Made by a program: the position numbers and the translations under genes
DNA from: a virus
Direction: 5' to 3' (one strand)
DNA: 64,000 nucleotides
Virus genome (UHGV): UHGV-0073881
Notes under the pieces: generated by a model
The model's database searches: none
Seen by the model: the letters and a program-made list of their open reading frames with translations, nothing else
What the model was told of the DNA's origin: nothing
Shown here: positions 5,271 through 38,856 of the stretch, in pieces
Numbering within the stretch: the first letter of the stretch is position 1
Layout of the letters: the number at the start of each line of letters is the position of its first letter

Positions 5271-6623
5271 ATGTGGAATCCAATTGTTAATGTAGATATT
5301 ACATTGAACACAGCAGGGACTACGAGAGAAGGTTTTGGACTGCCATTATTCTTAGCTTCAACAGATAACTTTGAAGAAAGAATTCGTGGTTATACTTCAC
5401 TAACTGAAGTTGCCGAAGACTTTGATGAAAGTTCTGCTGCATACAAAGCTGCAAAACAGCTATGGAGTCAGACTCCAAAAGTAACTCAACTTTATATTGG
5501 TAGACGTTCTATGCAGTATACCGTTGCTGTTCCTGATGCCGTTGCTGAGAGCACAGAATACTCTCTTACAGTTGCTGTAGGTGGTGGTGTATCTCAGCCA
5601 TTCCAGTACACAGCTAAGGCCGATGATACAGCCCTGATTGTTCTGAATGAATTTAAAACTCAGATTGAAGCAAGCCCTGCTGTTAAAGATGATGTTCAGG
5701 TTAATGTAACAGGTGCTGGTGACTCAGCTACAATGATTATCTCCAAAGCAGGTGATAATGATTTCGTAAAAGTTACCACAACTGGTAAGACTCTTTCAAT
5801 CTCTTCTACGACTGCTGACAGTGCATCAACTGCTCTCTCTGCAATTGAAACGTACTCAACAGATTGGTACTTCATTGCAACAGAAGACAGAACTTCACAG
5901 TTTGTCTTGGCAATGGCATCTGAAATTCAGGCTCGTAAGAAGATTTTCTTCACAGCTAACTCTGATGTGAAAGCTCTACAGGGAACCGACCTAGCTTCTG
6001 CTACAGACGTACCAGCACAGCTTGCTAAATCCAAGTACACTCGTACAGTTTGCTTGTGGCATCACACTGCAAGATACGACTACCCAGAAATGGCTTACAT
6101 TGCTTACGGTGCTCCATATGACGCAGGTTCCATTGCTTGGGGTAACGCTCAGTTGACGGGTGTTGAAACATCTTATCAGCCAGCTAACAAGAGACCTCTG
6201 ACAAGCATTCAGAAATCTGCACTAGATGCACGTAGCTGTAACTTCATTGACCTTGATGGTGGTGTTCCGGTTGTGCGTAGAGGTATCACTTCAGGTGGGG
6301 AATGGATTGATATCGTTCGTGGTGTCGATTGGCTGACTTCTGACTTGAAAACTTCTCTGAGAGACTTGCTAATTAATCAGAAGGGTGGTAAGATTACTTA
6401 TGATGATACTGGTATTACTCGTATTCGTCAAGTCATTGAAACATCTCTTCAGAGAGCGGTTAACAGAAACTTTTTATCATCTTACACCGTTAATGTACCT
6501 AAAGCTTCTCAGGTTTCTTTAGCAGACAAGAAAGCACGTATCCTGAAAGATATTACCTTCCACGGTATTATCGCAGGTGCTATCTTGGATGTTGACCTGA
6601 AAGGTACAGTGGCTTACGAATAA
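5271..6623 (+). CDS. tail sheath protein
   Basis: 450-aa ORF directly followed by a 148-aa tube-sized ORF, a chaperone pair and the tape measure gene, the canonical contractile-tail order. Confidence 0.6.
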   Translation: MWNPIVNVDITLNTAGTTREGFGLPLFLASTDNFEERIRGYTSLTEVAEDFDESSAAYKAAKQLWSQTPKVTQLYIGRRSMQYTVAVPDAVAESTEYSLTVAVGGGVSQPFQYTAKADDTALIVLNEFKTQIEASPAVKDDVQVNVTGAGDSATMIISKAGDNDFVKVTTTGKTLSISSTTADSASTALSAIETYSTDWYFIATEDRTSQFVLAMASEIQARKKIFFTANSDVKALQGTDLASATDVPAQLAKSKYTRTVCLWHHTARYDYPEMAYIAYGAPYDAGSIAWGNAQLTGVETSYQPANKRPLTSIQKSALDARSCNFIDLDGGVPVVRRGITSGGEWIDIVRGVDWLTSDLKTSLRDLLINQKGGKITYDDTGITRIRQVIETSLQRAVNRNFLSSYTVNVPKASQVSLADKKARILKDITFHGIIAGAILDVDLKGTVAYE

Positions 6624-19720: not shown

Positions 19721-20094
19721 TGAAGTGGTTAGAAGATGCTTTCAAGAATAATATCGGTGCAATTGTTGTAGGTATTTTCAGTGTAATTGGGATGTACACT
19801 ACAATGCAGGTCTCTGACGGAAAGCAAGAAGTTTCTATCAACACAAAGTTACAACAGTTGGATAGTTACTCAAAAGGTAACTATTCATCTATTCGTGATT
19901 TGCAGTCTGATATGAGACTTCTTCAGTTAGGTATGGAGAACCAGAAGGTACAGCTAGAGAACGTTAAGGGGGAAAACGCTAAGTTGACCAAAACCCTTGA
20001 TAAATTCTCAGATAGTGTGAACAACTTAGCACAGTCTGTATCAGCTTTACAAGCAATTACCGAACAAAATACACAAAGCACTAAGAAAAAATAA
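19720..20094 (+). CDS. membrane-anchored coiled-coil protein
   Basis: 124 aa; N-terminal TM segment IGAIVVGIFSVIGMY followed by a heptad-like Q/L-rich region; ATGA overlap with upstream ORF. Confidence 0.35.
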   Translation: MKWLEDAFKNNIGAIVVGIFSVIGMYTTMQVSDGKQEVSINTKLQQLDSYSKGNYSSIRDLQSDMRLLQLGMENQKVQLENVKGENAKLTKTLDKFSDSVNNLAQSVSALQAITEQNTQSTKKK

Positions 20095-20100
20095 TGTTAA

Positions 20101-20125
20101 GGCTCCCGTAAAAAGGAGCCTTTTT
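20101..20125. terminator. bidirectional stem-loop terminator between convergent transcription units
   Basis: GGCTCC-loop-GGAGCC followed by TTTTT; lies between the + strand ORF ending at 20094 and the - strand ORF ending at 20131. Confidence 0.6.
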
Positions 20126-20130
20126 CTTAT

Positions 20131-21030
20131 CTACTTACCAACTGACAAGGGAGCTTCAATCTTCCCTGCATGACGGTAATCTTTCAAGCCACCTATGAAG
20201 TCACTTGCAGTTTTATGTTTAATGTCTTCAAGGCATTTCAAGTCTTGAACAATCTCAAATTTAGGTGCTGGAAACTCTTCATTACCTAGCAACTGGAAAA
20301 CCTGAGACATATGGTTTTGATAAATTTGAGTATCCCCAAAAGTGCCTACCAAGTATCTTGGAGTGTACCCTGTCATCTTACACAGAACATGCAAAATAAA
20401 ACCATATGATGCAATATTAAATGGTAAACCTAAGAAGGTGTCACATGACCTTTGATACCATTTCAAATCCATCTCTCCAGTATTCGAAACATAAATCTGG
20501 AAAAGAACATGACAAGGTGCTAATGCCATAGAACCACTTGCAATATCTGCTGCATTCCAAGCATTAACCAGCATGTAACGGTCTGTAGGAGACTTTTTAA
20601 CCTTATCAATAAGAATGTCTAACTGGTCAACTACAACGCCACCATGACCTTCTGAAGCCCTCCACTGGACACCATAGATTCGTCCACCTGCATCTTCCAG
20701 CCAATCCTTCTCAGTCGCATAAGAAGTCTTCAACCAACGCTTGAAGTCATCTGTCCAGATAGTCCAACGTTCTCCGTCATTCTCTCCCCAAGTTCTGTAT
20801 CGAAGAGTTCCAAGGGTGTTTTCACCATTTAAGAACCAAAGTGCTTCCCCAATTACCTGACGCATGAAGGTTTGCTTTGAAGTGATTAATGGGAATCCAG
20901 AACGCATATCAAAGCGAAACTCTGGTGGAGCAAAGGTGGTAACAACTTTACCAGTTCGTGTATCACGCTGCTCACCGACTGTTAAAACATGGTTCAAAAT
21001 ATTCTTGTAACTTACATCTGCTTGTGACAT
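20131..21030 (-). CDS. thyA: thymidylate synthase
   Basis: 299 aa with ThyA hallmarks including the active-site PCH context (ALAPCHVLFQ) and conserved C-terminal region. Confidence 0.9.
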   Translation of the reverse strand: MSQADVSYKNILNHVLTVGEQRDTRTGKVVTTFAPPEFRFDMRSGFPLITSKQTFMRQVIGEALWFLNGENTLGTLRYRTWGENDGERWTIWTDDFKRWLKTSYATEKDWLEDAGGRIYGVQWRASEGHGGVVVDQLDILIDKVKKSPTDRYMLVNAWNAADIASGSMALAPCHVLFQIYVSNTGEMDLKWYQRSCDTFLGLPFNIASYGFILHVLCKMTGYTPRYLVGTFGDTQIYQNHMSQVFQLLGNEEFPAPKFEIVQDLKCLEDIKHKTASDFIGGLKDYRHAGKIEAPLSVGK

Positions 21031-21031
21031 A

Positions 21032-21577
21032 TCAGAAACGTCCTCTTACTTGTGGAACATAAATGTTGAATACAACGCTGTCATCCTTCGATGGTTTTGA
21101 CTGTATTCTAGCAAAAGTTGACTCATCATACAAGTACTCAAAGAAACCCTTGTAAGGAAGCTTCACAGTTGCTTCTTCAGTCACTTCACGAATATATGTT
21201 TGACAAACTGCATCTGCATATGGTAAAGCTTGGATTAGAATGCTTGCCCCGCCAATTATACAAACATCTTGCTCGATACTATTATCAAGATGTTTTAAGA
21301 ATGCCCCAAAAGCGTCTGAATGAACCTTAGCAAACATTACATCTTCTCTACCAAAATCTATACCTTCATACGGTAATGAGTTTGTCAGAACAATATTATC
21401 ACGGTCTGGTAAAGGTTTGCTTCCAAGACTCTTGAAAGTGTCATTACCCATAACTACCAATTGACCTGTGGTAATCTTTTTGAACTCTTGCATGTCTTGC
21501 TTATTACGAGGCCAAGGCATACCAGAAGGACAACCAAACTCCCCGTTAAGACCATTTGCAAAAACTAATTTAATCAT
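21032..21577 (-). CDS. folA: dihydrofolate reductase
   Basis: 181 aa; DHFR-like N-terminus (MPWPRNKQD, VVMGNDTFKSLG, PLPDRDNIVLT); adjacent to the thymidylate synthase gene. Confidence 0.85.
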   Translation of the reverse strand: MIKLVFANGLNGEFGCPSGMPWPRNKQDMQEFKKITTGQLVVMGNDTFKSLGSKPLPDRDNIVLTNSLPYEGIDFGREDVMFAKVHSDAFGAFLKHLDNSIEQDVCIIGGASILIQALPYADAVCQTYIREVTEEATVKLPYKGFFEYLYDESTFARIQSKPSKDDSVVFNIYVPQVRGRF

Positions 21578-21846
21578 TGTGTGAACCCCTTTACAATAAA
21601 CCAGTTAGCAATATTTTTAACAAATTTAACTGGGTGAAATACTAAATGTGGTTGTGGTTCATAACCACCATAAGCCCAGAAAGAGATAATGTTATTACAA
21701 TCCGTGCAACGTGTATACTCTTCGGCTACATTACCTGCGACAATCTCTGTAATCTCACCTTGGAAATTTGTACCTCCACAATGTGGGCATTTTAAAGGTT
21801 CGCCGTCTTGACTGTAACAGTGTTCAAACTTCTCAAACAGTTTCAT
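21574..21846 (-). CDS. hypothetical zinc-ribbon protein
   Basis: 90 aa with CPHCGG ... CTDCN cysteine pairs. Confidence 0.45.
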   Translation of the reverse strand: MKLFEKFEHCYSQDGEPLKCPHCGGTNFQGEITEIVAGNVAEEYTRCTDCNNIISFWAYGGYEPQPHLVFHPVKFVKNIANWFIVKGFTQ

Positions 21847-22364
21847 TTTTTGTTTACCTTAAAAGTTTGCTGGATATCAACTACGAAGTCTAAATCATCA
21901 CACTCACTTGATAGGAAATCTTCAAAGTGTTTTGGTATAAAACTTAGGAAATCCATAGAACCCAAATCACCTACTAAGCGAATGTAATAATCGTTCTCGC
22001 AAGTTGCATTAACTAAATGCCGTCCTATGTATGGCTTCACAATATCTCTTATATCATCTACGAAGATATTCAAAAGAGCTTTGAAGGATTTAGGGTACTG
22101 AGTTCCTCCATACAAGTCAATGCTTGCTTCAGTCTTTACAGAGATTGATTTAGCATCTCTGAACTCAGTTGAGAAAAGATGAGCAGGGAGAATACAAAGT
22201 GAATCTCCAGTATCTTCATCAACCAACTCAATAGTTCCTGCATCATAGTTTGTTTCAATCAGTATTTCACCCTCTTGTATCTTTCTTGCTTCAAGGTGAG
22301 TTGTGATAATACCTCTCAGTATTGATGCTTCAGGGAGAAATAAGTTGATTCCTATTTTCTGCAT
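21843..22364 (-). CDS. hypothetical protein
   Basis: 173-aa ORF in the co-oriented early cluster. Confidence 0.45.
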   Translation of the reverse strand: MQKIGINLFLPEASILRGIITTHLEARKIQEGEILIETNYDAGTIELVDEDTGDSLCILPAHLFSTEFRDAKSISVKTEASIDLYGGTQYPKSFKALLNIFVDDIRDIVKPYIGRHLVNATCENDYYIRLVGDLGSMDFLSFIPKHFEDFLSSECDDLDFVVDIQQTFKVNKK

Positions 22365-22365
22365 A

Positions 22366-22869
22366 TCAAACCTCTACAAATGTTTGCTTCATGTTATCGT
22401 ATGAATAGAATTTTATACACTTTTGAGTATTCCAGTCAACCTTTTCTTTGTAAGAAAGACCTTTTGAGATTCGCTTACCAAGAGTCTGATAGACGATATC
22501 TCGAAGCTTTCTGTACTCAGGTGCATCATCTAAAGCTTTTGCATCTGTAGTTGCCTTGTAACCGTCTATAGAACGTTGATTCCAATCCTGCTGAGTTGGT
22601 GACATTGGCTTGTAAAGCTGTGGCAGATGATTGTAAAGCATGTTACCTTCTTCTAAAGCAAGCTTCAGTTGGTGAAGGTACTCATTCAAACGACCATCCT
22701 CTTCAAGCCACTCATACAGAGACTGTAAAGCCCCTAGATTGTTGTTGTAATGGGCAGCACGTTTTACAGAACCCTTGTCAGTACGATAAGGTGACTTTGG
22801 AAGACTCAGTATCTGACCTTTCAAAACGTTGAATCCAAAGACCAAATCTATTTTCATGGGAAGAGACAT
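22366..22869 (-). CDS. hypothetical protein
   Basis: 167-aa ORF in the co-oriented early cluster. Confidence 0.45.
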   Translation of the reverse strand: MSLPMKIDLVFGFNVLKGQILSLPKSPYRTDKGSVKRAAHYNNNLGALQSLYEWLEEDGRLNEYLHQLKLALEEGNMLYNHLPQLYKPMSPTQQDWNQRSIDGYKATTDAKALDDAPEYRKLRDIVYQTLGKRISKGLSYKEKVDWNTQKCIKFYSYDNMKQTFVEV

Positions 22870-23213
22870 TTGATATCCTCATTTTTAAAAGTGAATGTTG
22901 TGTAGATAGTACCTTCAACATCTAACCAGATAGCAGTGGCATCCACACCATCAAGGTTATTGAAAAGTTCTTTGATGAACGAGTTACGAATATCCTTTGC
23001 ACAGGTTGTCTCAAGTTTAATGTTTGAGATTGCTGAACCAATTGCCATATAGCCTTTGACACGATTCTTCTCAGAATGCTTGATATCACCTTTCTGTAGT
23101 TTAGCAATCATCTCTACAAGAATCTCATGCCCCCATACCTTCTCAGCCTCTGTAGGCTTACTATAAAAACCAATTGCAAAGTTACCTTTAAAGATTGCAT
23201 TTTCACGTTTCAT
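22854..23213 (-). CDS. hypothetical protein
   Basis: 119-aa ORF in the co-oriented early cluster. Confidence 0.45.
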   Translation of the reverse strand: MKRENAIFKGNFAIGFYSKPTEAEKVWGHEILVEMIAKLQKGDIKHSEKNRVKGYMAIGSAISNIKLETTCAKDIRNSFIKELFNNLDGVDATAIWLDVEGTIYTTFTFKNEDIKCLFP

Positions 23214-23214
23214 A

Positions 23215-23514
23215 CTAATCTACCTTACTTAAGTTGAAGTTTAAGCCAAGTTTATCACAAACACTAATCATGTAGTCAAGAGATACTTTCCCACTACCAT
23301 TCAGGATGTTTGAGACTCTGGCTTGAGATATTTCACAAATCTTTGCTACCTGAATCTGTGAAAGGTTGTTTCTTTTCATGTGTATGTTTAACTTTTTAGA
23401 GATGTAAAACTTCATCTCATCAACATCCATTCCTGCTATATAAGCTTCCATTTCGGCCTCTCTATCTGCCTCCCAATCATCTTGAGGTGCATAAGGGTCA
23501 AAGATACTATTCAT
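23215..23514 (-). CDS. helix-turn-helix DNA-binding protein (XRE-like)
   Basis: 99 aa; C-terminal half matches an HTH pattern (LSQIQVAKICEISQARVSNILNG). Confidence 0.55.
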   Translation of the reverse strand: MNSIFDPYAPQDDWEADREAEMEAYIAGMDVDEMKFYISKKLNIHMKRNNLSQIQVAKICEISQARVSNILNGSGKVSLDYMISVCDKLGLNFNLSKVD

Positions 23515-23710
23515 CTTTCTTTCTCCGTTTACGAGAAGTGTCGATTAACGAATCAAGGTTAGTAGCTCTAACTTGTTCACGAGTACCATTGATGTAGTTA
23601 TCAAGGGACTCTACAACAGTGTTGAAGTCTTTAGCCCAAACTCTGTAAATAACTACGCCGTCATCGTCAATAACTTCACCATAGTCTACTCTACAGATAT
23701 TCTTCTTCAT
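23507..23710 (-). CDS. hypothetical protein
   Basis: 67-aa ORF coupled to neighbours. Confidence 0.4.
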   Translation of the reverse strand: MKKNICRVDYGEVIDDDGVVIYRVWAKDFNTVVESLDNYINGTREQVRATNLDSLIDTSRKRRKKDE

Positions 23711-24087
23711 TGTGGAAGACCCATGCAGTGACGGTTAATGATAAAGTGTTCAACACCGTCTAAAGCACCCTGAGAAACGTGCTCTTTCACAACTTCAATT
23801 TCAGTAATCTGCTCAGGGTTAAGAACGTCAATGTTTTCTGTAACCATCATATCAGAAACATCAAGGTAGTACTGCCCCATTGTGTGGTAATTGAAATCAA
23901 TTATCTTGTCAGTTAATTCAGAAACAGTGTCTTGAGAAATCGGCTTTGTCAATTCTCCAGCTTTAGAAACAACCTTTTGAGCAACCTGACAAGCTTCTAC
24001 TCTGACGTTGTTGTAATCAATCTTTGGCATATCTGCATAAGCATTGAAGCTTAGTGCGGCAAAGATACATAGTACAATCTTTTTCAT
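23707..24087 (-). CDS. secreted/periplasmic hypothetical protein
   Basis: 126 aa with N-terminal signal peptide MKKIVLCIFAALSFNAYA (A-x-A cleavage-like site). Confidence 0.5.
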   Translation of the reverse strand: MKKIVLCIFAALSFNAYADMPKIDYNNVRVEACQVAQKVVSKAGELTKPISQDTVSELTDKIIDFNYHTMGQYYLDVSDMMVTENIDVLNPEQITEIEVVKEHVSQGALDGVEHFIINRHCMGLPQ

Positions 24088-24179
24088 AACTTACTCCTAT
24101 ATAATATTTTGTATACCTACGAGTATAAAAATAAGCTATAACACCTGACTTGTCAACAGATTTTATAGCTTATTTGGCA

Positions 24180-24450
24180 GATTTTTTATAAAGCTACTGC
24201 CATCCTTCCATACCTTACCACACAAGACCAAACCATGCCGTACTCCACTTCACAGGACCAAGCATCACTTAAAAATCCTCTTAGAAGACTCTTAAGTGAT
24301 GCAATCGAATTTTAATGTAGCTCCGATTAACTACCCATACCTGACCGAACCTTACCGAGCCTTACCAGACACTACAGAACAGGACCGCACCGCACCTCAT
24401 TAAAAGACCCTCTTTAAAGACCTTTTAATAAGGAGCCTCCGAAGAGGCTA
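24180..24450. repeat. non-coding modular repeat region A
   Basis: no ORF of 60 aa or more; + strand strongly G-poor; shares modules with region B: 11-bp inverted repeat 24262-24302, covarying hairpin 24303-24340, box 24393-24430, short direct repeats CCTTACC and ACCGC; hairpin AGCCTC-CGAA-GAGGCT at 24431-24446. Confidence 0.6.
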
Positions 24451-24460
24451 CCTAGTCAAC

Positions 24461-24901
24461 TTAGAAGGGTTTTCTACGTTGCTTGTTAATATTAGCTTTC
24501 ATAGCAGCTAAGTGGTTTTGCTGTTCAATCAGTCGTGAACGTTCTTGATGGCTAAGTGTCATAGTGTTCACATTCTCAATTGCTTGAGTGGCTTGTTTTA
24601 AAGCACGACCAATCTTACCAGACATTTTACGTTTTGCAATAGTTGCTTGATGTTTTGGCTCAACTACTCGATAACCGACACCCATTGAAGCAACCAGATA
24701 AATCTTCTCTTCTTTAAGAAGCTTCTCAATAAACTTCTCAAGTCGATTTAGGCGTGTAAGTGCGTAAGCCTTCATTTCATCTTCGTACTTAACAATGTCA
24801 CCTTGATAAGTTGGCTTCACAATACCTAAGAAGGTGTCCATCTCAGAATGTGATACGGTGTCACCGTAACTAAACTTTGCTGCTAATGCTTTTGTATTCA
24901 T
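24461..24901 (-). CDS. hypothetical protein (cassette gene 2)
   Basis: 146 aa with basic C-terminus; flanked by the repeat regions. Confidence 0.5.
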   Translation of the reverse strand: MNTKALAAKFSYGDTVSHSEMDTFLGIVKPTYQGDIVKYEDEMKAYALTRLNRLEKFIEKLLKEEKIYLVASMGVGYRVVEPKHQATIAKRKMSGKIGRALKQATQAIENVNTMTLSHQERSRLIEQQNHLAAMKANINKQRRKPF

Positions 24902-24903
24902 AA

Positions 24904-25509
<606 letters not shown>

Positions 25510-25559
25510 TTAGTTGATTGTTAAGTTGTTTGTAAAGAACCCTCAACAGAAGACTCTTT

Positions 25560-25840
25560 AGAAACTTGGTAGATTTTTAACGTGGCTACTACCATCCACC
25601 CATATCATACCAAACCTGACCAAATCTTACCGCACCCAACATCGCCTAACCTTACCACACCTCATTAAAAGACCCTGTTTAAAGACCTTTTAAAAAGGTA
25701 AGTCTCATTTTAATGTAGCTGAGACTAACTACCCATACTAAACCTCACCGCACCTCACCGAGCCGCGCATTACCAAACCAGACCAAACCTTGCCTCACAT
25801 CACTTAAAAATCCTCTTAGAAGACTCTTAAGTGATGCTGG
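25560..25840. repeat. non-coding modular repeat region B
   Basis: G-poor + strand; same modules as region A in a different order: box 25658-25698, covarying hairpin 25701-25740, inverted repeat 25798-25837, direct repeats CCTCACCG and ACCAAACC. Confidence 0.6.
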
Positions 25841-25900
25841 TGAGTACCCGTTGGTTTATGCTGCTTAGTATACTCACCAAATTTTCTAGGTCAACAACTT

Positions 25901-27004
25901 TTATTCATAGTCTCGAATAACTAACCCAACAGGGAACTGTAAAGACCCCTTGCGAGTCATCTTCTGGAACTGAACCGTTAAAGGTTTCCCGATAAACTCT
26001 TCAGGGTGTTCAGCAAGATACTGTTTCTTCTCATGGGTAGTTTTCCATGAAACATCTACAAAGACATTTGGAAGTGTCTCTACAACAAACTTACCATGAC
26101 CCCGCTTATCGGTCTTCACACCAGTAATTTTAAACTCCTCTGTGTGCATCTTCTTATGTTTAATCAGGAAGTATGAACGGTGACCACACTCATAGAAGGA
26201 CTCTGGAGAGATTGAGCGGTACATTGCACCTTCAAACTTAGCTTCAACCCACTTATCATGAGCTTCATCAAACTCTTCCCAAGAATTTACACGACGAGAT
26301 TTAACAGGGACAACTCTACAGCCATCTCTAAAGTCATTCAATGGTGAAGTCTCAATAATACTTCTACGCTCAGGCCATGTCTTAGTGCTGTCACAGATAT
26401 CATACCAGTAAAACTTGAGTAAATGTCGGTCAGGATTGTCTTCATTTTTAATCATGGAGACAATATCTTCTAAGTCCAACCCATGAGCATAGATTTCACC
26501 ATCAAATTCATCAACGTCTTTATGGAGCCTCAACATTGCCATAATGTCAGGTATTAGCTCAGTAGGAATTTTATAAATAGTGTTCTCACGAGAATATGCT
26601 GTAAATACACTGCCAATACTTAAGTGTCTTGAAATCCTACAACGTACACCATCCAGTTTTGGTTGAGCATCAGCAGGAAATTTCAGATACTTTGCATGAC
26701 TAACCTTTGCAGCATCATGAGCAAGCTGTACACCTACCTTCTCAGTATTCTGTGCAGACTCTTTTGTGTAAGCGTAACCTTTACGGTCTACTTGTTTCTT
26801 GTACTTAGCAGAAACTTCAAAGAGAGCTTGCTGTTCAGCATTACGCTCATTCTTTTTACCGATGTTCTTAGGCTCTGCTGTGTACTCTTCAAACATCATC
26901 TTGCCATTTTCTTTACCGTAGGTTGTAACCACCTTATCACCTACAGCAACACACGACCAAACGTTAAAAGAGCCATCTTTATTTTGTTTGTACAGAATTG
27001 TCAT
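25901..27004 (-). CDS. ATP-dependent DNA ligase
   Basis: 367 aa with adenylation motif KxDGxR (PKLDGVRC) and a ligase-like downstream region. Confidence 0.85.
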   Translation of the reverse strand: MTILYKQNKDGSFNVWSCVAVGDKVVTTYGKENGKMMFEEYTAEPKNIGKKNERNAEQQALFEVSAKYKKQVDRKGYAYTKESAQNTEKVGVQLAHDAAKVSHAKYLKFPADAQPKLDGVRCRISRHLSIGSVFTAYSRENTIYKIPTELIPDIMAMLRLHKDVDEFDGEIYAHGLDLEDIVSMIKNEDNPDRHLLKFYWYDICDSTKTWPERRSIIETSPLNDFRDGCRVVPVKSRRVNSWEEFDEAHDKWVEAKFEGAMYRSISPESFYECGHRSYFLIKHKKMHTEEFKITGVKTDKRGHGKFVVETLPNVFVDVSWKTTHEKKQYLAEHPEEFIGKPLTVQFQKMTRKGSLQFPVGLVIRDYE

Positions 27005-27207
27005 TTTCTCTTACCACCAATCTCTACGTCGATAACTTGAGTGTCTCCACAAACATCAAACTTGTGAATGACATTTTCTACAGTGTAAGTCCAACCATCA
27101 ATCCTTACCCACTCACCTTCTCGTGGTACGATAGGGTTACGTTGGGCAACTGTAGTAGTTGAGTGTATAACGTCATATAGGTGAATAAAGTTTACCAGTA
27201 CTTGCAT
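27001..27207 (-). CDS. hypothetical protein
   Basis: track ORF 27001..27258 overlaps the upstream lipoprotein gene by 50 nt; internal Met at 27207 starts right after that stop codon. Confidence 0.4.
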   Translation of the reverse strand: MQVLVNFIHLYDVIHSTTTVAQRNPIVPREGEWVRIDGWTYTVENVIHKFDVCGDTQVIDVEIGGKRK

Positions 27208-27208
27208 C

Positions 27209-27454
27209 TTAATATCCTTCGTCAATAACGGTGATGTGTTGAGTGCTTGACTTACCATACCTGTAAGAAGTTGTTGTCTGTGAATTTGGGCAACGGACTA
27301 CTATTAAGTCATATTTAAATGTTGACCAATTAAGTTTGTATATTGAACAATCTCTCATCTCTGGAGGTAACTCATAGCTACTGTCTTGTTTGTCATAACT
27401 TGGGTTACAGCCAGTTAGAAAAAGCACTCCAAGTGCAATGATTGTTTTCCACAT
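27209..27454 (-). CDS. small lipoprotein
   Basis: 81 aa; signal peptide plus lipobox-like LTGC (MWKTIIALGVLFLTGC); three further Cys. Confidence 0.55.
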   Translation of the reverse strand: MWKTIIALGVLFLTGCNPSYDKQDSSYELPPEMRDCSIYKLNWSTFKYDLIVVRCPNSQTTTSYRYGKSSTQHITVIDEGY

Positions 27455-27675
27455 AGTTGATTTCCTTTTTCACAGTTTTCTTCGTAACCTTCTTGGACGG
27501 TCTTGTAAAGTTCCTTGAAAGTTTCTTCTTTCACTGGCTCTACAGACTTTGTTTTACACAAGTCCAAGTACCATTGATAGTCTAACCCACGACACCATGC
27601 TTCAGACACAAAAGAAATCTGAGGGTTTATGTTTCGGATTATTGCTAAACCAGCTTCTTCTTTACTGCTCATCAA
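27415..27675 (-). CDS. hypothetical protein
   Basis: 86-aa ORF with several cysteines. Confidence 0.4.
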   Translation of the reverse strand: MMSSKEEAGLAIIRNINPQISFVSEAWCRGLDYQWYLDLCKTKSVEPVKEETFKELYKTVQEGYEENCEKGNQLCGKQSLHLECFF

Positions 27676-27801
27676 ACTTAACCTCTCTAAAAGTTCTTAA
27701 GTAATATAGTTTGTAGTAAACTATTTCGCAACTACGAACGTTTGTTTTCAAAAGGTTCCAATCAAAACCTTCACCCATACTTCCCCAGATGCTGTAGAGC
27801 T

Positions 27802-28005
27802 TCACTGTAAAATGCTCCATCCAGTTTTCTGCCAATCACACCCACGATACCATGTAGCCATTGGGTAACCCATTTCACAGACAATCTTCCCATCTTTCAT
27901 TTCGAAGAACTCATCAGATGTGAAATTTTCATTACGTACTTTGTGACCACTCTTCATGGCTTCAATAGCTTCTTCATAAGTCATTTTGATTTCTCCAATA
28001 CTCAA
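27802..28005 (-). CDS. hypothetical small phage protein
   Basis: 67-aa ORF; pattern EAIEAMKSGHKVR resembles a small protein family common in phages (from memory, unverified). Confidence 0.4.
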   Translation of the reverse strand: MSIGEIKMTYEEAIEAMKSGHKVRNENFTSDEFFEMKDGKIVCEMGYPMATWYRGCDWQKTGWSILQ

Positions 28006-28214
28006 AAGTTAATGTCAATGCGTTCACCCTTAAGGACTCCAGTGTGGTCTTTTGCAATCTTACCATCAACAATAAGGATATGTGCAAACCTTAAAGAGTC
28101 ACGATTAAAACCTTTTACGAACTTACTAGGCATCACTACAATAAGCATCTCCTGAATCAACTCTGGAGTATAGCAATTGTCGTGAAGTTGTTGGATAACG
28201 TCTGAAAGTGTCAT
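28002..28214 (-). CDS. hypothetical protein
   Basis: 70-aa ORF coupled to upstream ORF. Confidence 0.4.
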   Translation of the reverse strand: MTLSDVIQQLHDNCYTPELIQEMLIVVMPSKFVKGFNRDSLRFAHILIVDGKIAKDHTGVLKGERIDINF

Positions 28215-28265
28215 AAATCCTCCTATACAAGATATAGTATAAGGTACTCTTCCATGAGCACCTTG

Positions 28266-28778
28266 TCAACTTAGTTTTGCAAACTCTCCGTGGAGTTTCA
28301 TAGCAGCTTCACAGTAAGCTTCATGGGCTTCTTCAGGGGTGTCATACATCCCAAGATGATAATTCTTACCTTGTAAACGAATCATTGCCCTAAACCTTTT
28401 CCCTATCTTCTGTACACCTTTTGGTAAACCTGATATGGACTTTCTAGACCGATTGCAAGAGTTTTGTGAAGCCGTACAAACCCTCAAATTCAAATACCTA
28501 TTATCCCAACCATCACAATTCTTGTGGTCAACCTGTAAGGTTTTATCAGGTAGGTATCCATCCATATACAAGATAACTAAACGATTTGCTTGGTAACTCC
28601 TTCCATCAATCAGCAATTGGACAGACTTGTGACCATCAGTGTTTGTTCTGTAGTTTCCAGCCCTCTTACCTCCAAATCTAGAGTTAAAGTTTGCATTACC
28701 TTCTCTAAATTTCCAAGTAAAGACCCCTGTATCGGGGTCGTACTCTAAAAGCTCCTTTAAACGAATTTCTGTAATCAT
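28266..28778 (-). CDS. HNH homing endonuclease with AP2-like DNA-binding domain
   Basis: HNH motif (VDHKNCDGWDNRYLNLRVCTASQN) plus AP2-like C-terminus (GVQKIGKRFRAMIRLQGKNYHLGMYDTPEEAHEAY); paralogue of the ORF at 38356; start chosen at internal Met aligning with that paralogue (track start 28817 overlaps the polymerase). Confidence 0.65.
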   Translation of the reverse strand: MITEIRLKELLEYDPDTGVFTWKFREGNANFNSRFGGKRAGNYRTNTDGHKSVQLLIDGRSYQANRLVILYMDGYLPDKTLQVDHKNCDGWDNRYLNLRVCTASQNSCNRSRKSISGLPKGVQKIGKRFRAMIRLQGKNYHLGMYDTPEEAHEAYCEAAMKLHGEFAKLS

Positions 28779-28788
28779 TTCAACACCA

Positions 28789-31494
28789 TCAATGTACTTC
28801 CAACCAGCTCTTACCAACCTTACCAGTACCTGTAACCATAGTTTCTTTTCTTAGACCAAGGTTTTTAGAAGCCTGCCCGTACATCCAGTCAGTGATAGCT
28901 TTAACCTCTTGAGTCATACTTTCTGGACATTCCCAACTATTTTCATCGTGATATGCCAGAAGAAGTCTAGCTCCAATAGCTGGCTTACGTCCATTCAGCT
29001 TCATCAACCCTTCATCATAGGCTCTACGACATGCAAGGTTAATTGCTTCATTCTGTACTTGACTTTCTGAACCCATCAAAAGGTAATTTAACAGCTTGTG
29101 TGGAGACTTACACCATAACCAAGCTCCAGCAACCTTTACAAAACCCCCTTTAGAGATTGCAGCAGTCTTACCAAAGACCTCTTCAAGAGCCTTCTTAGTC
29201 GCTTTAAAGTCAGCTTCTAAGTTATCAATCAGTTTCTTAATCTTCGGCAAACGAACGAAGTAAGTCTGTTTAGTCAATGCACCCTCCTGAGTAGTTGCTG
29301 CTTTAATGGTCTTAGCAAACTTCTCATCCCCTGCACCAAACAGCAGTGCATAGATGCCATTCTTAGCTTTCTTACGACCTTTACTGATTTCGTGAAGAAG
29401 ATTTTCATCCTGAGTCATACGACAAGTCAAGATATCCTGCTCATCATTCAAGCTGAAGTAGATACTGTTCAGTGTGTGAGCATCAGTGCCTGAGTAAACT
29501 ACGTACAAGTCGTTTTCAGAGTCATAACGCAGATACTTGTCAACCTCTGGATTCAGGTATTCGTCAAAGTGTTTGCAGTAGTAGCGACCATCTTCTTGAC
29601 GAACAAATTCAATCTCTTCTTTACCTTCGGTTACCGCTTTGGTGAACTCTTTATCACCCATAAAGTTACACAGTAAAACAAGCTGTGCAGAGTTCATATC
29701 CACAGAGACTACGTTGGTTCCCTTCTCACAAATCCAAACTGCCCTCATTGGTTCACCATAAACAGCAGCACCGGAAGGTACGTTTACAATACCATACTGT
29801 GTCATACGTCCAGTGGATGTACCAAACACCATTGCACCAGCACTTAAACGACCATCTGGACGAATCTGATTCAACCAACCTTTCTCATCATCCTTTGAGT
29901 TCTCAATAGTTCTGCGTCGGTGCATCAAAGTATAGTACTTCGCAATCTTCTGCCCAAGTTCACCTTCGATAGTGTCATAAGAAGATTCAGTCAGTTTTGG
30001 TGAAGTACGAATCAAGCAAGGTTCAAGAACATCTGTGTATTTCTTCACAGACCAATTATGCTCGATGTACTGTACCCCTTCATGCTCAACGTAGTTTAAA
30101 CCACAACGTTCAACCATTTCATCCCACTTAGGATGTTTACGAATCATCTTCTTATTATCTTTGAAGCGACAAACCTTAACAGGACGACCATCTGAGTCTT
30201 TCTTGTAGTTCCAATCATCAGGAATCCAACCAACAGATTTCAGATACTCTTTAACTACTGCAACCTGAGTCATGCGTGAAACTTCAAACTCAATCGGTGT
30301 ATATGGTGCATCAATCAAACCCGTGTAACGACTTGACTCAAGTTCAAAGTGATTAACAACATGATTGTTGTAGTACTTGACAATCTTAACAGTTTTAACT
30401 GGCTTCCAATCTTTGCACTTCTTGTCAACCTTCGCATTTAGCTCATTACATACTGCACGAGCATCTTTCATTGCCACGAAACCTTCTTTGTACTCTTCTC
30501 CGGTTACCGTGTTAGTTGGTGTGTAGCAGTTACGTTTCTCTACGCTGAAAATCTTGGTAGTTGGTTTACCAAATGGCTTAATAGGATAACTTTGCATTTC
30601 CCCATTACGAACCTGCTGACGATACTTTGTCTTAGGATACTTGGTAATACGTTTCAAACCATCTGCTTCACCAAAAGTTTCAACATACTCATTCCAAGCT
30701 TTTGCAAATTCTTCACCAGTAACTTTCCCTTTTGTCTTGATAGTTGGTGGTAAGAATGGCTCAACCTCTGAAGCAAGGTCAGCAGTCATCTTATCAAGTT
30801 CTTTAACACAACTCTTCATCATGTTAATGTCAGCTTTCCAACCATTGATAGCTTGCTGGCTCATCCAGAAAGATGTTTCTTTAGCTCGCATGTAGGTTTC
30901 GTAGGTATCCACACCACACTTCTTCAGCTTCACATACTCATTATCAAGAGCACGTTTAGTTTTGGCGTTGATTCGAATATCTTCAACAACACGAGTTAAG
31001 ATTTCAGCGTTCCAAACTCCCCACTCTTCAATCTCAGGCTTACGGACACCAACACGAGCACCCCATGCAGCCAAACCATGAGAACCCTTGTAACCTTTCG
31101 GTGTAGGTCTATCCATCCACTGAACACGAGATTGGATAAGTGAATCTTGGAAGAAATTACTCCAAGGCTTACATTTAGGGTTATCAAAGTTCCACAGGTC
31201 AGGTGCAATGTGGTTGAACACCCACCAGTCATAACCAAGACCGTTGTGAATGCAAAGACGTTTCGCCTTTAAAGCAAACTCAACACCCTCTCTTAAGCCA
31301 CCCTTGATATACTTGGTGTACTTGTGACCAAGAATAGGCTCATCAGTGAATACCCACACAGGTGGTTCATCACTGTCATCTTTGTAATCTGCAAAAGCCA
31401 TTACGTGAGCTTTAGTGAACTCAAGCAGCAATCCGTCAGTTTCTGTATCGCCTACCAGATGCAAATTTTTAAAGTCTACGTTTTCCATTTTCAC
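28789..31494 (-). CDS. DNA polymerase, family A, with 3'-5' exonuclease domain
   Basis: 901 aa; Exo I-like DTETDGL; motif B-like KNGIYALLFGAG; motif C HDE (LAYHDENSWE). Confidence 0.9.
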   Translation of the reverse strand: MKMENVDFKNLHLVGDTETDGLLLEFTKAHVMAFADYKDDSDEPPVWVFTDEPILGHKYTKYIKGGLREGVEFALKAKRLCIHNGLGYDWWVFNHIAPDLWNFDNPKCKPWSNFFQDSLIQSRVQWMDRPTPKGYKGSHGLAAWGARVGVRKPEIEEWGVWNAEILTRVVEDIRINAKTKRALDNEYVKLKKCGVDTYETYMRAKETSFWMSQQAINGWKADINMMKSCVKELDKMTADLASEVEPFLPPTIKTKGKVTGEEFAKAWNEYVETFGEADGLKRITKYPKTKYRQQVRNGEMQSYPIKPFGKPTTKIFSVEKRNCYTPTNTVTGEEYKEGFVAMKDARAVCNELNAKVDKKCKDWKPVKTVKIVKYYNNHVVNHFELESSRYTGLIDAPYTPIEFEVSRMTQVAVVKEYLKSVGWIPDDWNYKKDSDGRPVKVCRFKDNKKMIRKHPKWDEMVERCGLNYVEHEGVQYIEHNWSVKKYTDVLEPCLIRTSPKLTESSYDTIEGELGQKIAKYYTLMHRRRTIENSKDDEKGWLNQIRPDGRLSAGAMVFGTSTGRMTQYGIVNVPSGAAVYGEPMRAVWICEKGTNVVSVDMNSAQLVLLCNFMGDKEFTKAVTEGKEEIEFVRQEDGRYYCKHFDEYLNPEVDKYLRYDSENDLYVVYSGTDAHTLNSIYFSLNDEQDILTCRMTQDENLLHEISKGRKKAKNGIYALLFGAGDEKFAKTIKAATTQEGALTKQTYFVRLPKIKKLIDNLEADFKATKKALEEVFGKTAAISKGGFVKVAGAWLWCKSPHKLLNYLLMGSESQVQNEAINLACRRAYDEGLMKLNGRKPAIGARLLLAYHDENSWECPESMTQEVKAITDWMYGQASKNLGLRKETMVTGTGKVGKSWLEVH

Positions 31495-31744
31495 TCCCTC
31501 TCAAACATATGACTCCATACCTTACTGCAAAACGACACAAAAAGCAAGTTGACAAATAACTTGACAGGGTGTTAGTCTTGTATGCAGTGGGTTTTAACTT
31601 AAAAGACTCCCTTTACAGATTAACTATACAGATTCTTTAAAACCCTTAAAAGATTTTAATAGCTTTTAAAAAGCTTTAAAGTATTACGTATAGAATACGT
31701 AAAGAAAGAGATTAAGACTTAATAGAAACTATAAAGAGGCTGCC
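31495..31744. promoter_or_regulatory. divergent intergenic control region
   Basis: 250-bp AT-rich gap between the - strand polymerase gene and + strand genes; tandem TTGACA hexamers at 31549 and 31561; perfect inverted repeat TACGTAT-aga-ATACGTA at 31686-31702. Confidence 0.4.
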
Positions 31745-32167
31745 ATGCAGAGAATGTTTGTTCACCCTGACGTAGCAAATTTCCTAAAAGCTTTGGAGAA
31801 GTTAGAAGAACTTGACATAGCTGCTCAGAAGGAATATGCTTACCATCATCGTCGAATGGTTGATGTTCAACACGAAATAGAACTTTCAGAAGGTTACGAC
31901 GAAGATTTGAAATGCTCTGTTTTCGAGCATATGAAAGAGATTGCTTCTGATAGGCGTAAAGCAAAAGATACATGTTTTTTGATAGATGCCTTAAAAAAGA
32001 AGTTGCAAAGTGGAACAGACTTGTGTAGTCTAGCAACACTTCTTCAGGATGTTGAGAGTTCTTGGGACAGACATTACTTCCCAAGGTCTGAAAAGACACT
32101 TGACTTCTCTTCACCGGAAGGATTAAAATTATCACGACTTACATTAAACAAAATGAGAGAGAAATAA
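31745..32167 (+). CDS. hypothetical protein
   Basis: 140-aa ORF; + strand chosen over the overlapping antisense ORF 31719..32135 because it is co-oriented and coupled with downstream genes. Confidence 0.45.
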   Translation: MQRMFVHPDVANFLKALEKLEELDIAAQKEYAYHHRRMVDVQHEIELSEGYDEDLKCSVFEHMKEIASDRRKAKDTCFLIDALKKKLQSGTDLCSLATLLQDVESSWDRHYFPRSEKTLDFSSPEGLKLSRLTLNKMREK

Positions 32168-32168
32168 T

Positions 32169-32969
32169 ATGAAAACTGTAAATGAAATGCTGGCAGAAAA
32201 GAACATCAACGAACAATTCCTGTTAACTACTGTGGAAAGCCTTGCTGTAATTTTCCGTAGCAATACGTTCACTCGTGGCTTTATGCCAGAATCACTTCAA
32301 GTTACAGATATTGACAGTGACGAATCTTTCCGCTCAACTGTAGAGTTACTTACCAGCAATCGTAAAATTGCTCTGACCTCTATCGTTGTTGGTGTTGACT
32401 CTCTGGCTAAATTCCTGTTTGAGAACATGCAGAGTGGTGATTACTCTAGCATGGATGAGCAAAGCATTAATATGCTGCTTAATGAGATGACTGAACAGCA
32501 AATGGTCATGGGTATTGTTGGTGGAGTATCAAGTGTCATGGCTATGCTGGAAAAGCGTATGGAAGATAAATCTTCACGCTATGACAAACTTGATTGGGGT
32601 TTCAATGTAATCTCTGAACGTGCTAAAGCGCTGGCTATTGAAACTTACCAGAAACTGGAAGACTTGACTAAACAGGACGCAGATATTAAGCTTGACGACA
32701 TTCAGGTTATGGTTACTGCTCTGACACCTGCAATCATGACTATCATGAATATTCACGCAATTCTTGAAGTTGCAGATTTGCTGAAGTCTCCACCTTCTTT
32801 CATTGAAGAAATCAGTGGTGGTGCAAGTGCATCTGCTTTGCAAGATGTTCTTATGCAGACCAACGTAGCAATTGTACGTGAGAAGATTGCCATTAACTTT
32901 GGCGATGAATTTTTGCAGCAGATTGAAGCAATGGCTGAAAAGAACGGTGAAGATATTACAATTCACTAA
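32169..32969 (+). CDS. hypothetical protein
   Basis: 266-aa ORF followed by a terminator. Confidence 0.5.
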   Translation: MKTVNEMLAEKNINEQFLLTTVESLAVIFRSNTFTRGFMPESLQVTDIDSDESFRSTVELLTSNRKIALTSIVVGVDSLAKFLFENMQSGDYSSMDEQSINMLLNEMTEQQMVMGIVGGVSSVMAMLEKRMEDKSSRYDKLDWGFNVISERAKALAIETYQKLEDLTKQDADIKLDDIQVMVTALTPAIMTIMNIHAILEVADLLKSPPSFIEEISGGASASALQDVLMQTNVAIVREKIAINFGDEFLQQIEAMAEKNGEDITIH

Positions 32970-37331: not shown

Positions 37332-38378
37332 ATGGAAAAGTATACACTTACAAAACTCCCAGATACTGTGACACACGTCTTTATTGACTCTGATAGCATT
37401 GCCTATAAAGGTGCTTGTGTAGTTGAGAAAGCAAAGTACAAGTATGTGAACAAAATCACTGCTGAAGAGTCTGAAGGGTTTGACAGTGCAAAGCTTGCTA
37501 ATCAATGGTTGTCAGACCAGAGAACTTTGACAGAAGAACTTGGCCTCAGCTTTGATGAAGATGAATGGGAAAGACAAACTTGGAAAGAAGCTAAGAGTGA
37601 AAAAGAAGCTATTATGGCAACTCAACAAGTTCTTCAAGAATGGTTGAAGGTTGTCGGAAAAGAAAGACATTGGGAAGGTTACCTCACAGAGAAAGGTGTT
37701 CACAAACACAAAGACATTAAAGGTCTTGAACATCAATACCAAGGTAACAGGAAAGATGCTGTAACACCAACGCACCTAGTTGCTTGTCGTGAGTATCTTC
37801 TGTCACGACCAGAGTTTAAGCTTTTAAAGGGAGGCTTTGAAGCTGACTCTATTGTAATTGCCAAAGCTGAGAAGATGGGTAAAAAAGCTGCATTGATGAG
37901 TATTGATAAAGACCTTCGTCAAGCTGAAGGCACATACTGCATCGATATGACTTATGAGAAAGCCCCATTAATCTTTATCGCTGATGGTAATGTGGGAGAG
38001 ATTTGGGATTGTCCTATCAAATCTAAACCAAAAGCTAAGAAGACGGTTGGAGTAGGCTTCAAATTCCTCTGCTATCAAGCTGTAGCAGGTGATAATGCCG
38101 ATAACTACTTTGGCCTTAAGGGTGCTGGTAAAGTTGCTGTAATGAACGCTCTGGAAGGTAAAACAACCTATAAAGAGTGTCTTGATGCAATCTATGAACT
38201 GTATGCTAAGAAAGACTCTTACACATACGTATCGTGGGACGGTGAAACAATTACAAGAACACCTCTTGAGTTGATGGAACAACATTTCTTCTTAGCATAC
38301 CAAGAGCGAAACAAATCAGATGACTTCTCATTTGAAAAGTATGGTTGGACTCCAAATGTTGACTCAGCAGACACTTAA
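37332..38378 (+). CDS. 5'-3' exonuclease / flap endonuclease
   Basis: helix-3-turn-helix-like motif AGDNADNYFGLKGAGKVA characteristic of FEN/5'-3' exonucleases; start set at ATG 37332 (GGAG 6 nt upstream) since track start 37305 lies inside the terminator. Confidence 0.7.
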   Translation: MEKYTLTKLPDTVTHVFIDSDSIAYKGACVVEKAKYKYVNKITAEESEGFDSAKLANQWLSDQRTLTEELGLSFDEDEWERQTWKEAKSEKEAIMATQQVLQEWLKVVGKERHWEGYLTEKGVHKHKDIKGLEHQYQGNRKDAVTPTHLVACREYLLSRPEFKLLKGGFEADSIVIAKAEKMGKKAALMSIDKDLRQAEGTYCIDMTYEKAPLIFIADGNVGEIWDCPIKSKPKAKKTVGVGFKFLCYQAVAGDNADNYFGLKGAGKVAVMNALEGKTTYKECLDAIYELYAKKDSYTYVSWDGETITRTPLELMEQHFFLAYQERNKSDDFSFEKYGWTPNVDSADT

Positions 38379-38856
38379 AGAGTATCTTCATTATGACCCC
38401 GAAACAGGGGTCTTTACTTGGTTGAAGAAATCGGCTAATAGGACAGTCATTGGTTCAGTTGCTGGAACACCCCATAAAAGGGGCTATATCAGGATTACCA
38501 TAAAGAGAAAATCATACATGGCTCATGATTTAGCCATTCTTTACACAGAGGGATTCTTACCAGACCGTGTAGACCATCGTAACGGAATTACTAATGACAA
38601 CCGAAGAATGAACTTGAGAGTTTGCACTCAAGCTGAAAATTGTTGGAATAGAAAAATACACTCCAACAATACATCTGGCGTAAAAGGTGTATCATTCAAC
38701 AAAGCTTCACAGAGGTGGAGAGCAAGGATTATGGTTCACGGTGTAACACATTTCCTTGGTCTGTTTGACAATGTTGATGATGCCAAAGAAGCAATTAGAA
38801 AGAAAAGAGAAGAACTTCACAGAGAGTTCACAAATCATGGAGAAGCTTATGAATGA
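38356..38856 (+). CDS. HNH homing endonuclease with AP2-like domain
   Basis: HNH motif (VDHRNGITNDNRRMNLRVCTQAEN) and AP2-like C-terminus; paralogue of the ORF at 28266..28778 (shared YDPETGVFTW); start at internal Met aligning with paralogue, track start is 38320. Confidence 0.65.
   Translation: MLTQQTLKEYLHYDPETGVFTWLKKSANRTVIGSVAGTPHKRGYIRITIKRKSYMAHDLAILYTEGFLPDRVDHRNGITNDNRRMNLRVCTQAENCWNRKIHSNNTSGVKGVSFNKASQRWRARIMVHGVTHFLGLFDNVDDAKEAIRKKREELHREFTNHGEAYE

Follow-up and report, generated by a model that had tools for sequence, protein, structure and literature searches.

Six small genes between a signal-peptide gene and frd in a Felix-O1-like phage: conserved hypothetical genes with a putative regulator pair next to an ultra-conserved non-coding block

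The viral genome UHGV-0073881, of which a stretch of 64,000 nucleotides (nt) was analysed (referred to here as the window), carries six small open reading frames (ORFs) on the minus strand between the dihydrofolate reductase gene frd and a gene encoding a secreted protein with a signal peptide. They are named O1 to O6 by ascending window coordinates, O6 being transcribed first (Table 1). The window belongs to a Felix-O1-like phage of the Ounavirinae: a megablast search with positions 21000-24500 returned 259 phage records, nearly all of them from Felixounavirus, Mooglevirus or Suspvirus, and the closest record was Escherichia phage pEC-M719-6WT.1 (92.9% identity, 95% query coverage). Phages of this type serve as diagnostic tools for Salmonella and in the biocontrol of E. 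coli and Salmonella, yet to our knowledge a function has been assigned to only a minority of their non-structural genes. The six-gene block is no exception, as it consists of ordinary conserved hypothetical genes which are already annotated as such in hundreds of genomes and which offer a few testable leads.

Table 1. Features of the leftward operon and its surroundings in the window (aa, amino acids; HTH, helix-turn-helix; RBS, ribosome binding site; UTR, untranslated region).
Feature	Position	Strand	Remarks
Bidirectional intrinsic terminator	20099-20122	both	terminator scan; corresponds to Felix O1 t79/t80
td, thymidylate synthase	20131-21030	-	ORF and ortholog annotation; last operon gene
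frd, dihydrofolate reductase	21032-21577	-	ORF and ortholog annotation; overlaps the O1 end by 4 nt
O1	21574-21846	-	90 aa, four-Cys zinc ribbon
O2	21843-22364	-	173 aa, acidic alpha/beta protein
O3	22366-22869	-	167 aa, basic accessory protein
O4	22854-23213	-	119 aa, no assigned function
O5	23215-23514	-	99 aa, XRE/Cro-C1-type HTH
O6	23507-23710	-	67 aa
Signal-peptide gene	23707-24087	-	126 aa, Sec-type signal peptide; operon gene 1; Felix O1 ORF87 / Bas63 gp37; PHROG 4332; outside the block
AT-rich 16-mer ATACAAAATATTATAT	24099-24114	-	between promoter and RBS of the first gene; candidate operator or 5'-UTR element
93-nt ultra-conserved non-coding block	24122-24214	-	holds the operon promoter
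Sigma-70-like promoter TTGACA-17-TATTTT	24128-24156	-	promoter scan; predicted
Long intergenic hairpins	24262-24302, 24310-24345, 24392-24436; 25560-25600, 25690-25735, 25800-25845		in both intergenic regions
Two-gene cassette	24461-25506	-	proteins of 146 and 200 aa without known function (PHROGs 5926 and 4652)
60-67-aa ORF	27802-28005	-	likely true start ATG at 27984

According to GC skew and the ORF map, a leftward gene block on the minus strand extends from about 31.5 kb to 20.1 kb, in the order DNA polymerase, homing endonuclease, small ORFs, DNA ligase, two inserted genes, the six-ORF block, dihydrofolate reductase and thymidylate synthase. An initial annotation of this DNA had described the six ORFs as translationally coupled neighbours, and all of them were found where it had placed them, on the minus strand and with tight junctions. 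The signal-peptide gene and O6, O2 and O1, and O1 and frd each overlap by 4 nt, O6 and O5 by 8 nt and O4 and O3 by 16 nt; the pairs O5/O4, O3/O2 and frd/td are separated by a single nucleotide. Five of the six ORFs are preceded by a motif resembling a Shine-Dalgarno (SD) sequence, O6 being the one without it. Such tight head-to-tail junctions are in keeping with translational coupling. Downstream of the block a single terminator-like site was recognised, the terminator listed in Table 1; it closes the leftward operon as well as the structural and lysis genes that run rightward, and a promoter-like site lies upstream of the signal-peptide gene at 24156-24128. From this sigma-70-type promoter to the terminator there would run a nine-gene operon composed of the signal-peptide gene, O6, O5, O4, O3, O2, O1, frd and td, probably as part of the leftward transcription unit for replication and nucleotide metabolism.

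In Felix O1, the genes 96 to 80 have been described as a single transcription unit (Whichard et al., PMC3185647). Reverse transcription PCR in that phage placed the expression peak of ORF83, ORF84, ORF87, td, ligase and polymerase at 25 min and that of frd at 10 min (PMC3185647). Among these, ORF83 corresponds to O2, ORF84 to O4 and ORF87 to the signal-peptide gene. The block had been called early, which holds in part only; peaks at 25 min, with frd at 10 min, therefore make it delayed-early to middle.

All six ORFs are under purifying selection, with ratios of nonsynonymous to synonymous substitutions (dN/dS) of 0.04-0.35 and a synonymous divergence (dS) of about 1, near saturation (Nei-Gojobori method, five relatives). 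Each of them matches a PHROG family (E values from 2e-19 to 4e-90), and the order of the six is maintained in more than 250 genomes. That some of them might be chance ORFs in an AT-rich phage genome, as the missing SD motif of O6 and the lack of a Pfam domain in four of the six could suggest, has next to no probability: dN/dS values well below 1 at saturated synonymous sites in five relatives, PHROG matches at E<=2e-19 and the conserved order contradict it, and the substitution pattern by itself already refutes it. Gene reality, operon layout and orthology are demonstrated, as are the HTH and zinc-ribbon domains, the distributions and the missing known folds described below.

In agreement with the initial annotation, which had noted no enzymatic signatures, none of the six ORFs matched an enzyme family in Pfam, NCBIfam or PADLOC. 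There are no paralogs of the six in the window. A sequence search of the PDB with O1 and O5 and with profiles of O2, O3, O4 and O6 gave a generic HTH protein (2a6c, for O5) as its sole match, and three word-indexed homology searches returned close relatives at 60% identity or above only.

The orthologs in Felix O1 are ORF82 (O1), ORF83 (O2), ORF84 (O4), ORF85 (O5) and ORF86 (O6), those in phage Bas63 (JohannRWettstein) are bas63_0032 to 0036 (gp32-36) for O1, O2, O4, O5 and O6 in that order. Gene order and orientation between ORF87 and frd/td are the same in both phages as in the window, and the promoter block upstream is identical. At protein level the identity between Bas63 and the window amounts to 59% for O1, 33% for O2, 62% for O4, 64% for O5 and 54% for O6; the signal-peptide ortholog is only 31% identical. 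O3, which the window carries between O4 and O2, is missing from Felix O1 and Bas63, and their O2 is strongly diverged. The orthologs in both phages are likewise without established function; the match to Felix O1 ORF82-86 and Bas63 gp32-36 ties the block to existing genome-wide knockout data.

A different picture of divergence emerged from the comparison with a further related locus (L002). Here dS was 0.08-0.21 for O2, O3 and frd compared to 0.7-1.4 for O1, O4, O5 and O6, so that the genes have evidently been swapped one by one. The six ORFs are evidently not one system but a mosaic of small non-enzymatic genes of differing evolutionary age, individually exchanged by recombination. Such a mosaic within the nine-gene operon, with the roles of O1 to O6 proposed below, is the best overall explanation, and we would put its chances at about even. 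Every biochemical function assigned here to one of the six is inferred.

In O1, the cysteines C20, C23, C47 and C50 are invariant among ten diverse homologs and form a four-cysteine zinc-ribbon core, which bears out the CxxC...CxxC ribbon that had been recognised in one of the ORFs. The same alignment revealed a WAYGxYxP motif, in which A58-Y59-G60 and P64 are invariant and W57 and Y62 nearly so. The O1 family comprises 284 phage records. Its members adjoin frd in Felixounavirus-type phages; in T4-like phages, Autographiviridae and Klebsiella phages they are located among small genes without assigned function. Listeria phage LPML1 (L010), a distant member of the Ounavirinae, carries the sole O1 homolog of its genome at 5971-6225 between nrdD and nrdG and not beside frd, thus again among genes of nucleotide metabolism.

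The best Pfam match of O1 was Lar_restr_allev (PF14354), with 19.5 bits below the cutoff of 28.6. The scores against the Lar model TIGR03655 (17.6 bits, cutoff 39.6) and against the ECs_2282 putative zinc-binding family NF047912 (26.5 bits, cutoff 37) were too low as well, and only two of ten O1-family members matched the Lar model at E<0.01. BLASTP against Lar/RalR of the E. coli K-12 Rac prophage (b1348) aligned 16 residues with an E value of 0.023 in a two-sequence comparison. Membership in the Lar family was rejected, with all curated cutoffs missed and no meaningful similarity to K-12 RalR or YdaE. O1 resembles Lar/RalR of the Rac prophage in being small, phage-encoded and equipped with two CxxC pairs, but it possesses the WAYGxYxP motif and a C-terminal extension, both of which are absent from Lar. 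Judged by its sequence, O1 is a zinc ribbon and not a demonstrable Lar-family member.

For Bas63, genome-wide knockouts have been described in the PhageMaP preprint, where the essentiality of gene 32 was reported to be lower in DH10B than in three further E. coli hosts (PMC11482910). Its authors regard gene 32 as Lar-like with a possible counter-restriction role against Type IV restriction; they note that the Type IV restriction systems found in the other three hosts are absent from DH10B (PMC11482910). We took gene 32 to be the locus tag bas63_0032, the ortholog of O1; this is an assumption. O1 may accordingly be pictured as a host-specific protective factor, possibly with a counter-restriction function.

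O2 is acidic in all orthologs (isoelectric point, pI, 4.5-4.8) and evolves three to four times faster than td and frd; it is 33% identical to its Bas63 ortholog where td reaches 79%. In a structure-based homology search, as proposed in the initial annotation, the AlphaFold model of O2 was confident but had no convincing fold relative, the search against BFVD returning its own family only, and the predicted model of O4 was poor and gave no fold match. A frameshift splits the O2 ortholog of SUSP2 (L004, 4506-5017), and in Moogle (L009, about 3992-4504) the ortholog contains an in-frame stop around codon 17 and is annotated from a later start, i.e. N-terminally truncated. These lesions could be genuine gene decay or sequencing errors.

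O3 is present in Moogle, SUSP1/2, Sf13 and pEC-M719 and absent from Felix O1, FO1a and Bas63, so that it is an accessory insertion between O4 and O2. The homologs of O3 make up a very narrow family of 14 clusters with identities of 60% or more, to which an exhaustive profile search among 1.84 billion protein representatives added two distant real relatives, besides one spurious repeat protein. O3 and O2 are not related to each other as far as hhalign can tell (probability below 1%), and neither has a domain match in Pfam. Both proteins combine generic hallmarks of phage anti-defence genes, namely patchy distribution or fast divergence, small size and no enzymatic domain. O2, which is acidic, fast-evolving and apparently dispensable in some relatives, and O3 would thus be the best candidates for binders that interact with the host or its defence.

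O4 is the only one of the six ORFs conserved across the Ounavirinae (301 records, including Erwinia Kolesnikvirus and Yersinia P778), and in the Ounavirinae genera examined it is always found in the module of polymerase, ligase, frd and td. This subfamily-wide occurrence in one module looks like a core function. O4 would be a core protein of the subfamily, more likely tied to replication or nucleotide metabolism.

The main rival explanation extends such a role to the entire block, whose products would be accessory parts of the machinery for replication and deoxynucleoside triphosphate (dNTP) supply, such as scaffolds or regulators of a dNTP complex or replisome accessories, co-expressed with frd, td, ligase and polymerase as their partners. 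The genes indeed share one transcription unit with frd and td inside the pol-ligase-frd-td module, the timed orthologs peak together with td, ligase and polymerase at 25 min, O4 keeps its place in this module in every Ounavirinae genus examined, and LPML1 has its O1 homolog between nrdD and nrdG. However, O2 and O3 are dispensable or absent in close relatives, a rate of evolution three to four times that of td and frd as in O2 is atypical for subunits of a machinery, and beyond the Ounavirinae the O1 homologs reside among unrelated small accessory genes and not among genes of nucleotide metabolism. We consider this explanation possible but somewhat unlikely, and keep to the mosaic of individually exchanged genes.

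The C-terminal HTH that had been noted in one ORF was confirmed in O5, whose residues 47-93 match Pfam HTH_3 (PF01381) with 34.6 bits against a cutoff of 23 (E=2e-8). The cutoff of HTH_37 was also exceeded (31.2 bits, cutoff 27), the protein belongs to PHROG 1373 (transcriptional regulator), and its best sequence match in the PDB, 2a6c, had an E value of 0.005. The segment of the recognition helix, SQ(A/S)RVSNI, is conserved in all orthologs. In front of the domain O5 bears a strongly conserved acidic N-terminal extension of 40 residues (peptide FDPYAPQDDWEADREAEME). O6 (PHROG 4473) has a variable N-terminus, but its last 21 residues are near-invariant, VRATN(I/L)DSLIDTSRKR(R/K)KKDE, and end in a basic stretch. 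In 257 phage records O6 lies directly upstream of, and overlaps, the HTH gene, with the regulator adjacent in each. No Pfam or PDB match was obtained for O6, and no toxin match in Pfam, NCBIfam, PADLOC or the PDB.

The best-conserved parts of both proteins are situated outside the predicted folded cores, in the acidic O5 peptide FDPYAPQDDWEADREAEME and the basic O6 tail DSLIDTSRKRRKKDE. Their opposite charge suggests that O5 and O6 interact. Together with its constant partner O6, O5 would act as a transcriptional regulator, most plausibly of the operon that encodes both, by way of a conserved element close to the promoter.

Upstream of the signal-peptide gene, 230 of 231 phage records share the 93-nt non-coding block with an identity of at least 95%, and none of the records listed carries an annotation there. 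The block is invariant in the window, Moogle, SUSP1, FO1a and Bas63, although the next gene encodes a protein with only 31% identity, dS is about 1-2 and synonymous sites of the neighbouring genes are saturated. The predicted promoter is embedded in an imperfect palindrome of 47 nt, with the -35 hexamer at its centre. The palindrome arms are exact inverted 12-mers AATAAGCTATAA (24130-24141 and 24163-24174), which exist in only two copies in the 64-kb window; in about 83 kb scanned of the 86-kb Felix O1 genome, the orthologous site is the only one. Between promoter and first gene, the 16-mer ATACAAAATATTATAT has one exact match in the window and occurs once in each of eight related loci at this position only, with one mismatch in L002. 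It is present even in a locus lacking the 93-nt block.

Several observations weigh against a simple regulatory circuit of this kind. The pI of O5 is 4.3-4.9, and such an acidic pI is unusual for a DNA-binding regulator. L002 and Sf13 (L003) keep O5 together with its recognition helix without possessing the 93-nt block and the pair of 12-mers, which argues against the 12-mers as the O5 operator. Binding of O5 to the inverted 12-mers is thus a weakened candidate, given two relatives that keep O5 without the site. The 16-mer is a candidate operator by co-occurrence only.

O5 can be compared with XRE/Cro-C1 regulators, including the anti-CRISPR-associated (Aca) repressors and the controller (C) proteins of restriction-modification (RM) systems. 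Like these, it carries an HTH_3 domain above the Pfam cutoff, is small, shares its operon with small genes and is preceded by a promoter with inverted repeats on either side. Unlike them, it has an acidic pI and the acidic N-terminal extension of 40 residues, is encoded by a virulent phage in an operon ending in frd and td, and its candidate operator is missing from some genomes that carry O5.

O6, O5 and the ultra-conserved promoter might alternatively form a self-contained regulatory cassette, either an autorepressor of the Aca or RM-controller type or a toxin-antitoxin-like pair in which the gene of the small protein comes before that of the HTH protein, that throttles an anti-defence cargo consisting of O4 to O1. 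Such a cassette would account for O6 always preceding the HTH gene with an overlap of 8 nt, for the exact inverted 12-mers that bracket the promoter and are unique in the part of Felix O1 scanned, for a cargo that varies in the presence or absence of O3, and for sub-threshold matches of O5 to HigA, HipB and Y4mF antitoxins and to controller proteins. These antitoxin and controller-protein scores are, however, far below the cutoffs (e.g. 25.8 bits for Y4mF, cutoff 71.65), and O6 belongs to no toxin family; for the same two reasons O6 and O5 were rejected as a type II toxin-antitoxin pair. Moreover, Sf13-type loci retain O6 and O5 unchanged although both the palindrome and the entire 93-nt block are missing there, O4 counts among the core genes and not as variable cargo, and the operon ends in the housekeeping-type enzymes encoded by frd and td. 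A throttled anti-defence cassette is quite improbable, and we favour O5 and O6 as a putative regulator pair within the mosaic operon.

The block had been proposed as the most likely place for host-takeover or anti-defence factors. This proposal stood in part: the phenotype of Bas63 gene 32, the divergence of O2 and the patchiness of O3 are in line with it, the core character of O4 and the location of the Bas63 counters elsewhere are not. When Bas63 knockouts were screened against 12 defence systems, g77, g79, g80, g84, g85 and g130 were validated as counters (PMC11482910), and g40 and g123 as triggers (PMC11482910).

The following points speak against an anti-defence role of the block. None of the validated counters or triggers of Bas63 falls into the six-gene block, and no ORF resembles a characterised anti-defence, host-takeover or inhibitor family in Pfam, PHROG, NCBIfam and PDB searches. 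The phenotype of gene 32 comes from a pooled screen in a preprint, and its attribution to Lar relies on a similarity that fails the cutoffs here. Bas63 is, in addition, remarkably sensitive to several RM systems (BASEL paper). The genes are furthermore part of a unit for replication and nucleotide metabolism, and their timed orthologs peak in mid-infection and not immediately early. Set against the screen results and the RM sensitivity, the gene 32 phenotype therefore leaves one indirect anti-defence lead, O1, and several points opposing it. As only O1 is linked, indirectly, to defence evasion, the block is ordinary and not a discovery.

It is rather unlikely that at least one of the six is an unrecognised inhibitor of a host system targeting nucleic acids. 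The best candidates for such an inhibitor would be O1, directed against Type IV (McrA/McrBC/Mrr) or Type I systems, and O2, with dosage adjusted by O6 and O5 acting on the ultra-conserved promoter. If this were true, the block would represent an autoregulated counter-defence operon inside the replication module of the Ounavirinae. The genes of interest are narrowed to O1 with its host-dependent phenotype, O2 with a confident model lacking a fold relative, and the regulator pair O5/O6.

Two intergenic regions of the window, and only these two, contain arrays of GGTNN pentamers on the minus strand (24205-24396 and 25604-25794), one upstream of the 93-nt block and the other between ligase and the inserted genes. 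Altogether 17 matches, all of them on the transcribed strand, were counted where 0.12 would be expected. Relatives share the GGT phase of the arrays but not the sequence. One idea is that the arrays might serve as an origin prone to R-loops or G-quadruplexes, or as a protein-binding RNA. The 93-nt block and the GGTNN arrays are less expected than the gene block itself and may bear on regulation or replication of the module.

Both regions also form long hairpins (Table 1), some of which exhibit a conserved A-rich loop and compensatory stem changes between the copies, e.g. AGTCTCA...TGAGACT versus AATCGGA...TTCGATT and TGGCAG...CTGCCA versus TGGTAG...CTACCA. The region folded much better than shuffled controls (z=-6.4); an Rfam scan of 20000-32500 found no family. 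The two copies of this GGTNN/hairpin module enclose the two-gene cassette, which suggests its recent recombinational insertion. The cassette proteins are 96-99% identical to those of Moogle and SUSP1/2, where the flanking genes reach only 43-65%, and the cassette is absent from pEC-M719, Felix O1 and Bas63.

A further promoter, TTGACC-16-TATACT, is situated at 25867-25894 on the minus strand directly after the ligase stop codon. Its -10 element shares bases with the left arm of an inverted repeat of 9 bp, TGGTGAGTA...TACTCACCA. Sf13-type relatives keep this ligase-proximal layout of promoter and repeat with arm sequences that are different but complementary.

In their layout the intergenic modules recall the PeSLs of T4-like phages, composite promoter/stem-loop motifs (PMC2839356, PMC4122927) that have been proposed to drive modular shuffling (PMC4122927). 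As in PeSLs, a sigma-70-like promoter is paired with stem-loops, and the modules flank the indel cassette 24461-25506 with mosaic genes on either side, which fits the proposed shuffling role. They differ in stemming from another phage subfamily and in the additional GGTNN arrays and the 93-nt block that is near-invariant in 231 genomes.

The initial annotation had also pointed to a further block of small ORFs at 27001-28214. Six small ORFs are indeed located there, all matching PHROGs of unknown function. One of them, the 60-67-aa ORF of Table 1, scored just below the threshold of the Tad2-like (Thoeris anti-defence 2)/DUF2829 model PF11195 (22.7 bits, cutoff 25), and three of six homologs matched this model, likewise below threshold. 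Its best PDB profile match was SptTad2 (8wjd, E=0.17), confined to the N-terminal 26 residues. A total of 458 phage records spanning many families contain homologs, all annotated as hypothetical. Going by these sequence matches, this ORF may be a better anti-defence lead than any gene of the O1-O6 block. An ortholog of the Bas63 trigger g40, expected beside the ligase in this second block, appears to be missing, as no window ORF matched bas63_0040; the window ORF 27001-27258 matches bas63_0041 and Felix O1 ORF90.

Next to the second block, an HNH_3 homing endonuclease with an AP2-like domain is encoded at 28266-28817 on the minus strand, overlapping the 3' end of the DNA polymerase gene. A paralog with 39% identity is found about 10 kb away from this copy on the plus strand (38320-38856).

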